The notes under the pieces: model-generated
What the model was told of the DNA's origin: nothing
What the model saw: only the letters and a program-made list of their open reading frames with translations
Database searches by the model: none
Shown here: in pieces, positions 7,713 through 10,345 of the stretch
How the letters are laid out: each line of letters begins with the position of its first letter
Position numbering within the stretch: the stretch's first letter is position 1
Source of the DNA: an uncultured archaeon
Lineage (GTDB): Archaea; Asgardarchaeota; Lokiarchaeia; Sigyniarchaeales; SOKP01
Direction of reading: 5' to 3'
Assembly (NCBI GenBank): GCA_964388035.1
Contig: CAYLZE010000127.1
Coordinates: 2,530 to 13,694, forward strand
Length of the DNA: 11,165 nucleotides
Program-made: the position numbers and the translations under genes

Positions 7713-8134
7713 AAGAATTGTTTTCTAGAAGAGACTTTCTTGAAAAGCTATGAAAGTTTCTTCTTAACTGATGAATCATTGGTGAAGGATGGGTCGTTGA
7801 TAATGTTAGAGAAAAAAGTACCCTAAGCTCCTTCGAAAGAAAAAATCTATTCGAAAGGTTAAGGATGCGAGAAAATTAATGCTCGAGATCCACTTAGTGG
7901 CTTAACTCATTGCAAATAAATGTAGTACAAGGATAGATAAGGATAGCAATTCAATGAACGGATGTTTTTCCATTACTCAACCGGAAGAATTACTTAATCC
8001 GATTCGGATTTCGTTTGTAATTATTTTTCTCAACTGCAAGATAATTTCATTGGTATTTTATCAGTTCGATATTTTAATTTATGAACTAATAGCGATAGAT
8101 TTATAATAATGAAAAATTGATTTATTATTATCCA

Positions 8135-8989
8135 ATGAATGTGTCAGCCCCTATCTCCATTCAAGTTATTTGTCCTTTCTGCGGAAAGAAAGGTCAAATA
8201 ATAATTGATAAAAGTAAAGTATATAAAAATGAAAAAGGCATAACAACCGTCAATATTTTACCGGGTTTGGTTTGTGAACATTCTTTTTTGGCATATATCG
8301 ATAAGCATTTTTCTGTTAGAGATTGTTTTGGGATTGATTTTAATATAGAAATACCTCAAATCCAAGCAGATATGCATGATAATTTGCAAGCGCCAGAATT
8401 TGATATAGATATTATAAAATATAATTTAATTCCTTCCTTAATGGTTAATGTGTTAATAGGAGTTTTAAGCAAGGCGAAAGTAATTATTTTAAACGATTTT
8501 GATTATTTAAATGAAATATTCTTGAAATTTTTTGATTACATTTTTAGGAGTTCATTCGAATTTGAAATTCATCTTATAACTTCATTAGATTATAACAAAA
8601 ATAAAAAATTATATAGAAATTCTTTAGTGTTAAGCGGAAATAGAATATTATCGGATAATAAAAATATAATTGATACTAAAAGTACAAAAATTGAAAATGC
8701 AATCATTCAGAAGTTTTTCTCTCAAATTGATAGCCAAAATGGATTCATACTATTTAAGAATGAAATAACTAAGCTCTTTACATTATCCAAAGAGATCATT
8801 GAAATCAATGAAAATCTTAAGGAAAATGAGGATTTTACTTCAAAAAATGCCATTACCTATATTAATAATAAATATAGTACTAAAATTACATATCCATATT
8901 TTAACTTTCTAAGTAACATAGCTGAACATTATTTTAACGTTGTCTTGAAAAAAGCATCAGATTCCGTAGATATCCTCGGATTAATGTAA
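8135..8989 (+). CDS. Hypothetical protein with N-terminal Zn-ribbon (CxxC...CxH), Lokiarchaeia-like family
   Basis: CPFC...CEHSFLAYIDKHFSVRD N-terminal module. ATG 8135 is preferred over TTG 8117 because a TTTATAA box at 8100-8106 sits ~29 nt upstream, which fits a leaderless mRNA. Confidence 0.8.
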   Translation: MNVSAPISIQVICPFCGKKGQIIIDKSKVYKNEKGITTVNILPGLVCEHSFLAYIDKHFSVRDCFGIDFNIEIPQIQADMHDNLQAPEFDIDIIKYNLIPSLMVNVLIGVLSKAKVIILNDFDYLNEIFLKFFDYIFRSSFEFEIHLITSLDYNKNKKLYRNSLVLSGNRILSDNKNIIDTKSTKIENAIIQKFFSQIDSQNGFILFKNEITKLFTLSKEIIEINENLKENEDFTSKNAITYINNKYSTKITYPYFNFLSNIAEHYFNVVLKKASDSVDILGLM

Positions 8990-9131: not shown

Positions 9132-9875
9132 ATGCCTTTAGAACCAGTGGATTATGTTAATGGAGTTATGAGTTCCATTTCTTTTTCCGTTTCGATTTTT
9201 GTTGTATTCTTGATCCTTTATAAATATACAAAATTCAAAAATAAACAATTGATCTATATTGCTATTTCGATGTTTGGGATAATGTGGACGTATAGTTCTA
9301 CGGTTGCTTCGTTTTTTACCTTGTTACTTACTCAAAATCCCTTACCTATGGAAATTTATTTCATTTTGGGTAATGGTATATTTCCCTTTACCCTAGCATG
9401 TTGGATTTACGTGGTTTTTGATTTAAAAAAGTCAAATCGCGCTAAAATATATGGTCTAACCACGTTGATTATCATGGGTTTTCTTGATTTCATTTACATT
9501 TTTCTGGTATTTACTCAACCGAATTTAATTGGTATGAGCGAAGGAAACGTTGATATTAGATATACGGGTTATGCGCAACTTTATTTAATAGCCTCTCTAT
9601 CGTTTGTTTGGATAGGACTAATTGTTTTTCTTAGAGACGTATTTAAATCCTCTTCGTTAGTTCCAAAAGTAAAAGGAAGTTTAATTCTTGTTTCACTTGT
9701 GATCTTTTCAATTGCTTCCAGTTTTGATGGCTTTTATGAATTAGATATTCTACAGTTAATTATAGTTAGATCGTTTGTGATTATCGCAAGCATTTTAGGC
9801 TATATGGGATGGCTTTTACCCGAATCGATTAAACGATTACTTGAAAAAGAGAAACCGGTAATGAAAGTTGAATAG
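9132..9875 (+). CDS. Stand-alone 7-transmembrane membrane protein of unknown function
   Basis: 247 aa, seven hydrophobic segments separated by short, often Lys-rich loops. GGTGA RBS. No soluble output domain. Confidence 0.85.
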   Translation: MPLEPVDYVNGVMSSISFSVSIFVVFLILYKYTKFKNKQLIYIAISMFGIMWTYSSTVASFFTLLLTQNPLPMEIYFILGNGIFPFTLACWIYVVFDLKKSNRAKIYGLTTLIIMGFLDFIYIFLVFTQPNLIGMSEGNVDIRYTGYAQLYLIASLSFVWIGLIVFLRDVFKSSSLVPKVKGSLILVSLVIFSIASSFDGFYELDILQLIIVRSFVIIASILGYMGWLLPESIKRLLEKEKPVMKVE

Positions 9876-10135: not shown

Positions 10136-10140
10136 AAAAA
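10136..10140 (-). terminator. Oligo-T tract after tRNA-Pro
   Basis: TTTTT two nt after the discriminator A73; typical of archaeal oligo-U termination. Confidence 0.4.
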
Positions 10141-10156
10141 GTGGGAGAGGGGGGAA

Positions 10157-10186
10157 GTGCTCTCTCTTCAAGAGGTTTTCAGAGAT
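10157..10186 (-). other. tRNA intron 3 (30 nt, non-canonical position 58/59 in the T-loop)
   Basis: BHB: central helix GTTC/GAGC, bulges AA|A and AC|T, intron helix TCTCT/AGAGA, outer helix GGGG/TCCC. Confidence 0.88.
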
Positions 10187-10207
10187 TTGAACCCCCGACC
10201 ACTCGGC

Positions 10208-10235
10208 TTCTGGTATGGCTGCAATGCAGAAATAA
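10208..10235 (-). other. tRNA intron 2 (28 nt, canonical position 37/38)
   Basis: Strict BHB: central helix CTGG/CCAG, bulges GG|T and AA|G, intron helix TAT/ATA then CTGC/GCAG, with the anticodon stem as the outer helix. Confidence 0.92.
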
Positions 10236-10245
10236 CCCCAGCCGA

Positions 10246-10277
10246 TTCGACTTAGCATGAAGAAATCTCAATGTAAC
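10246..10277 (-). other. tRNA intron 1 (32 nt, non-canonical position 27/28)
   Basis: Central helix TGAT/GTCG, bulges AC|G and AA|T, intron helix starting TTA/TAA. The exon-side helix is not directly stacked, so this is a relaxed BHB/BHL motif. Confidence 0.8.
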
Positions 10278-10332
10278 GTATCATACCAAGCTAGACCACC
10301 CTCCCTGTCATTAATGCGGCATATATGACGCG

Positions 10333-10345
10333 TTATAATTATTTC
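10333..10345 (-). promoter_or_regulatory. Putative BRE/TATA of the tRNA gene
   Basis: GAAATAATTATAA on the minus strand, with TTATAA ending ~28 nt upstream of tRNA G1. Confidence 0.5.

Follow-up and report, generated by a model that had tools for sequence, protein, structure and literature searches.

We find that the minus strand at positions 10305..10142 of the 11,165-nt stretch of DNA analyzed here (the window) carries a tRNA-Pro(GGG) gene of 164 nt, made up of four exons and three introns. The locus is a real proline tRNA gene in four pieces, separated by three short introns of the bulge-helix-bulge (BHB) type, and we consider it very probable that it is the single functional tRNA-Pro(GGG) gene of a Lokiarchaeia-type Asgard archaeon, in which the three introns are removed by EndA and the exons joined by RtcB. 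The exons measure 28, 10, 21 and 15 nt and the introns 32, 28 and 30 nt, the latter placed at tRNA sites 27/28, 37/38 and 58/59, and introns account for 90 of the 164 nt (55%). The first-pass annotation of this DNA had proposed these lengths and positions, a 74-nt product and an intron share of 55%, all of which we reproduced exactly on the reverse complement of positions 10142-10305.

All parts of the gene lie on the minus strand. Exon 1 (10278..10305) covers tRNA positions 1-27, including 17a, and supplies the 5′ strand of the acceptor stem, the D-arm, position 26 and C27; it is identical to the start of the gene in the same-genus genome (L001/L024). It is followed by intron 1 (10246..10277, 32 nt, site 27/28), by exon 2 (10236..10245), which holds positions 28-37 with the anticodon GGG (34-36) and G37, and by intron 2 (10208..10235, 28 nt) at the canonical 37/38 site. 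Exon 3 (10187..10207, positions 38-58) contributes the 3′ strand of the anticodon stem, the variable loop, the 5′ strand of the T-stem and the T-loop as far as A58, where intron 3 (10157..10186, 30 nt, site 58/59) interrupts the T-loop. Exon 4 (10142..10156, positions 59-73) completes the T-loop and adds the 3′ strands of the T-stem and acceptor stem and the discriminator A73. The assignments of exons 2, 3 and 4 follow ARAGORN, which calls the joined 74-mer tRNA-Pro(ggg) with a full cloverleaf, in agreement with the anticodon and proline identity first proposed. Its drawing has an acceptor stem of 7 bp, an anticodon stem of 5 bp and a T-stem of 5 bp that is G-C paired, together with U8, A14, G18-G19 in the D-arm, U33, the anticodon GGG, G37, the T-loop motif GTTCAA, A73 and the G1-C72 pair. 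Of these, the anticodon GGG, G37, A73 and the G1-C72 pair are presumed proline identity elements. CCA is absent from the gene sequence. A BHB-excision solver run on the locus returned one clear best solution, with a score of 72.5 against 52.5 for the next.

On the same strand, a run of five T (10136..10140) lies one base past the gene and is a likely transcription stop, and a TTATAA hexamer (10333..10338), spotted by eye 28-33 nt upstream of the mature 5′ end, is a possible archaeal TATA box. A coding gene for SRP19, recognized by Pfam, lies 210 nt from the tRNA gene on the opposite strand. Two plus-strand open reading frames just upstream of the tRNA locus, at 8117-8989 (290 aa) and 9132-9875 (247 aa), had no Pfam match at E <= 0.001.

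The splicing motifs were assessed as a 4-bp helix (H) between two 3-nt bulges, with the cut after the second nucleotide of each bulge. At the register given above, H is paired at four out of four positions in all three introns, and no other register within 4 nt in either direction gives four pairs. The strands of H are UGAU/GUCG in intron 1 (bulges ACG and AAU), CUGG/CCAG in intron 2 (bulges GGU and AAG) and GUUC/GAGC in intron 3 (bulges AAA and ACU). Introns 2 (h of 4 bp, h′ of 3 bp) and 3 (h of 4 bp, h′ of 5 bp) have flanking helices on both sides and are strict hBHBh′ motifs, and intron 1 (h of 0 bp, h′ of 3 bp, two G-U pairs in H) is of the relaxed HBh′ type. The 4-bp helix and cut register described for each intron in the first-pass annotation thus stand, with the refinement that intron 1 is relaxed, contains two G-U pairs and lacks an exon-side helix. 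When the introns were shuffled with the exon flanks held fixed (20,000 trials per intron), motifs as good as the observed ones arose in 0.3% of trials for intron 1, 0.06% for intron 2 and 0.005% for intron 3, and all three exact registers together would be expected by chance at about 1e-10. A loose BHB rule is satisfied by 25 of the 9595 start-end pairs within the 164 nt, so that loose motifs as such are not rare; the evidential weight lies in the exact coincidence of the motifs with independently defined junctions.

Such junctions are provided by relatives. These were reached through SRP19, after which 60 related genomes were searched with a pattern for the 5′ exon and every match within the family was retrieved, a search blind to genes that are interrupted within their first 26 nt. 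It recovered tRNA-Pro(GGG) in 31 of the 36 family genomes. In one of these (L061, family genome G027) the gene is uninterrupted and identical to our predicted product at 73 of 74 positions, and we took the covariance-model score on this natural orthologue in place of the joined 74-mer: it reaches 58.2 bits on Rfam RF00005, for which the cut-off is 29. Because uninterrupted orthologues are identical at 73 of 74 positions, the junctions are proved without recourse to any splicing motif. In a further orthologue, L018, all three predicted junctions are contiguous and a single intron is located elsewhere, at 43/44. The orthologue in Promethearchaeota archaeon Meg22_1012_Bin_233 (L001, same genus) has exons that are 100% identical to those described here; it has no intron 1, and its 30-nt introns at 37/38 and 58/59 differ in sequence from those of our gene. 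GATAC and TCGG, the sequences on either side of intron 1, are contiguous in L001, L018 and L061.

Comparison of intron presence among orthologues neighboring srp19, as the first-pass annotation had proposed, showed that the tRNA gene is upstream of srp19 in L001 and that the srp19-adjacent position is kept in L001 and L003. Across the family, tRNA-Pro(GGG) has no intron in 8 genomes, one in 16 and two in 7, and three introns are seen in the present genome only. The introns occupy seven sites (21/22, 25/26, 27/28, 37/38, 43/44, 52/53 and 58/59) and almost all measure 28-32 nt. This series of zero, one, two and three introns over 31 relatives and seven sites offers material for studying intron gain and loss.

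In the unspliced window, neither ARAGORN nor the Rfam library at gathering scores reported anything, and no Rfam tRNA match covered the locus even at E up to 10; the expectation that standard annotation would miss the gene held for ARAGORN and the Rfam tRNA model. The genome is a metagenome-assembled genome (MAG) of 5.47 Mb in 211 contigs, with 33% G+C, 96.7% completeness and 7.3% estimated contamination. Over the whole of it ARAGORN in intron mode made 22 tRNA calls, and Rfam had 19 over the cut-off. Two of the ARAGORN calls, both of which we rejected, concern special tRNAs: a 'tRNA-Stop(tta)' at C19:22275-22377 proved to be tRNA-Pro(UGG), whose intron at 25/26 measures 29 nt, and a 'tRNA-Pyl(cta)' at C7:54735-54839 to be tRNA-Gln(CUG), whose intron at 37/38 measures 32 nt. 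More than half of the tRNA set of this genome escapes the common tRNA finders, which also make false calls, and calls of suppressor or pyrrolysine tRNAs in such genomes are not to be trusted.

We took a census of the tRNA genes by anchoring on the acceptor stem and T-arm, excising BHB candidates and scoring the resulting cloverleaves with a scorer of our own; ARAGORN was too permissive for judging candidate spliced products. This ad hoc and incomplete census yielded 29 high-scoring tRNA genes, among which 5 have no intron, 12 have one, 8 have two and 4 have three, or about 1.4 introns per gene. At least 24 tRNA genes other than tRNA-Pro(GGG) are interrupted in the same way, and interruption is the normal state of tRNA genes in this genome. 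Three introns were also found in the genes for Gly-CCC, Pro-CGG and Ser-GGA (at least three besides Pro-GGG). A T-loop intron of 28-31 nt at 58/59 or 59/60 is present in at least 15 tRNA genes, and 27 of the 40 reconstructed tRNA introns measure 28-32 nt, a sharp peak in length. Examples of heavily interrupted loci are C7:63947-64113, C29:6079-6239, C59:18457-18618 and C59:10413-10627, the last a tRNA candidate of 215 nt that may hold four or more introns. The proline isoacceptors are separate genes, with three introns in GGG, three in CGG and one in UGG. A search of this 96.7%-complete genome for another tRNA-Pro(GGG), also suggested by the first-pass annotation, found one locus, the one described here.

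The relatives from the same genus and the same family are named Promethearchaeota archaeon or Promethearchaeia archaeon, and Promethearchaeia is the class to which the Loki-type Asgard archaea belong. On this footing the host is a Loki-type Asgard archaeon, which the first-pass annotation had considered only as a condition. Conserved synteny with relatives argues that the contig belongs to the lineage in spite of the contamination estimate. Two EndA paralogues are encoded, one of 202 aa (C146:8038-8646) and one of 200 aa (C33:37574-38176); both contain the two EndA Pfam domains, and the PDB matches of both are archaeal EndA chains. The 202-aa paralogue comes nearest to the catalytic subunit of the Aeropyrum pernix EndA heterotetramer (3p1z_B, 1e-35), with an end-to-end alignment. 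RtcB is also encoded (553 bits). Judged from these similarities, the EndA pair fits the two-subunit, broad-specificity architecture that has been assigned to Asgard archaea (PMC5829648).

The layout, the BHB geometry, the near-identity of the product to orthologues that lack introns and the enzyme genes are all observed; that the gene is spliced, and in what order, we infer. Transcription of the whole unit would yield a precursor of about 164 nt, EndA would cut at six sites, inside the two 3-nt bulges of each intron, RtcB would join the four exons of 28, 10, 21 and 15 nt into a tRNA of 74 nt, and CCA would be added after ligation. Because introns 1 and 3 draw on nucleotides of the D-stem and T-arm for their motifs, these motifs and the mature fold are mutually exclusive. 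Relative to the minimum-energy fold, the penalty for imposing a motif is 2.4 kcal/mol for intron 3, 5.1 for intron 2 and 9.4 for intron 1, which suggests that introns 3 and 2 would form their motifs more easily than intron 1. The motif of intron 1 competes with an 11-bp helix that the minimum-energy fold forms between the D-arm (gene positions 15-25) and the middle of intron 1 (positions 46-56; window 10253-10291, minus strand). As the cost of the intron 1 motif falls to 4.8 kcal/mol once introns 2 and 3 have been removed, the folding predictions hint that intron 1 may be removed last.

Three other readings of the locus were weighed. The cloverleaf and its motifs could be a product of chance, obtained from three freely chosen deletions, and the frequency with which the loose BHB rule is satisfied within the gene would seem to allow for this. 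The uninterrupted orthologues, however, set the junctions independently of the motif, and three exact registers would have to have coincided with them at the joint chance given above; the comparative data refute this reading, and we regard its probability as negligible. The locus could alternatively be a decaying pseudogene in which the inserts are junk that is never removed, with tRNA-Pro(UGG), or a copy that the assembly lacks, serving the codons CCU and CCC. That standard finders make no call at the locus, that the assembly is a draft in 211 contigs and that the motif of intron 1 is relaxed all speak for decay. Yet the exons are 100% identical to those of the same-genus orthologue while the introns have diverged, all three inserts are in exact BHB register, introns are found at the same positions in many relatives, and at least 24 other tRNA genes of this genome are interrupted likewise, so that interruption is normal here; we therefore find a pseudogene very unlikely.

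The remaining reading concerns intron 1. EndA might splice introns 2 and 3 only, the insert at 27/28 being recent and cut poorly or not at all, which would leave an impaired copy. The absence of intron 1 from the same-genus genome would agree with this, as would its missing h helix and two G-U pairs in H, and the 9.4 kcal/mol by which its motif lies above the minimum-energy fold. Against it, introns of 30 nt at 27/28 are present in at least nine other family genomes from several genera, mostly with the same relaxed layout of H and a long h′, and this type of site has thus persisted in what is usually the only Pro(GGG) locus recovered there. The two-paralogue EndA set has moreover been linked to the cutting of relaxed motifs (PMC5829648). 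We accordingly think it very improbable that the copy is impaired, and favor a functional gene from which all three introns are removed.

Intron 3 and the L001 intron at the same site are both 30 nt long and about 60% identical by eye (z 4.2), and differ by a double change from C-G to U-A in h′ and a change from G-U to A-U in H. Identical exons beside a diverged intron with a compensatory change in h′ are the pattern to be expected if the intron is spliced and its structure constrained. The introns that the orthologues in L001, L059 and L070 carry at 37/38 resemble intron 2 (z 3.4-5.1). The resemblances of intron 1 are weak, the best having z 3.7, and intron sequences evolve too fast for them to tell gain of this intron from loss. 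We hold it possible, if rather doubtful, that the genus is now accumulating uniform BHB introns of about 30 nt and that the 27/28 intron arose once this lineage had parted from its congener, which has identical exons but is without that intron. If true, nature would here offer one gene in its states before and after an insertion, from which to learn how introns of this sort come into the genes of close relatives of eukaryotes.

Some likenesses extend across tRNA genes. The first 14 nt of intron 3 (10157-10186) are shared with the 58/59 intron of a tRNA-Pro(CGG) from another genus (L086, G036:C10; z 7.0), which could mean either that the intron predates the split of the isoacceptors or that it was exchanged between them. 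In the present genome, tRNA-Ser(GCU) at C10:6453-6566 and tRNA-Leu(GAG) at C23:25334-25470 have the same T-stem sequence and T-loop introns of 30 nt that are nearly identical (z 7.4), and this cross-isotype pair suggests copying or gene conversion between tRNA genes. It is among the 4 similar pairs out of 510 intron pairs in the genome. A blastn-short search of the same genome for copies of the three tRNA-Pro(GGG) introns returned none beyond chance.

Several studies have described interrupted tRNA genes in Asgard archaea. In Atabeyarchaeia and Freyarchaeia, introns are found in 92-95% of tRNA genes, with several introns in more than half (Valentin-Alvarado et al., 2024, PMC11291895), and a preprint on 90 Asgard genomes reports genes with as many as five intervening sequences, a preference for BHB sites and under-calling of Asgard tRNA genes by tRNAscan-SE (Goswami et al., 2026, bioRxiv 10.64898/2026.10.13.758758). 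Undetected disrupted tRNA genes had been predicted in Asgard archaea along with their broad-specificity two-subunit EndA (PMC5829648). Our gene resembles those of PMC11291895 and of the main text of the preprint in its Asgard host, in having several short BHB introns that tools under-call, and in combining the canonical site with sites on the D-arm side and in the T-arm. It differs in that the two papers center on Atabeyarchaeia and Jordiarchaeia/Freyarchaeia, whereas this gene comes from a Loki-class genome, and in that intron length peaks at 28-32 nt here against medians of 22-23 nt in the main text of the preprint. That main text never names Lokiarchaeia or Promethearchaeia, and a literature search, which covered the preprint by its main text, found no paper on Loki-class tRNA introns specifically. 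The first-pass annotation, in which Thermoproteales were the home of multi-intron tRNAs, was incomplete on this point, as non-canonical multi-intron genes of Asgard archaea have been published in these two sources, and it overrated the novelty of the gene, having itself named such prior description as an outcome that would lower it.

Intron 2 is like the canonical 37/38 intron of archaea and eukaryotes in that its motif is strict hBHBh′ and its central helix includes the paired anticodon, whereas introns 1 and 3 do not fall within the anticodon loop and their motifs borrow nucleotides from the D-stem and T-arm. The Thermoproteales (Sugahara et al., 2008, as cited in PMC11291895 and the preprint) share with our gene up to three BHB introns per gene, non-canonical positions and a two-subunit EndA, but they belong to a different phylum, and related introns recur there over many tRNA genes, which the summary in the preprint ascribes to transposition; the introns of our gene, by contrast, have no detectable copy in their genome, in which only the 4 of 510 intron pairs noted above are similar. 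Splicing of many non-canonical tRNA introns had already been published for Asgard archaea, and our gene leaves that picture unchanged. In conclusion, heavily interrupted tRNA genes are already known from Asgard archaea, and the gene described here adds an example from the Loki class, a clean and fully resolved tRNA gene that is more intron than exon.
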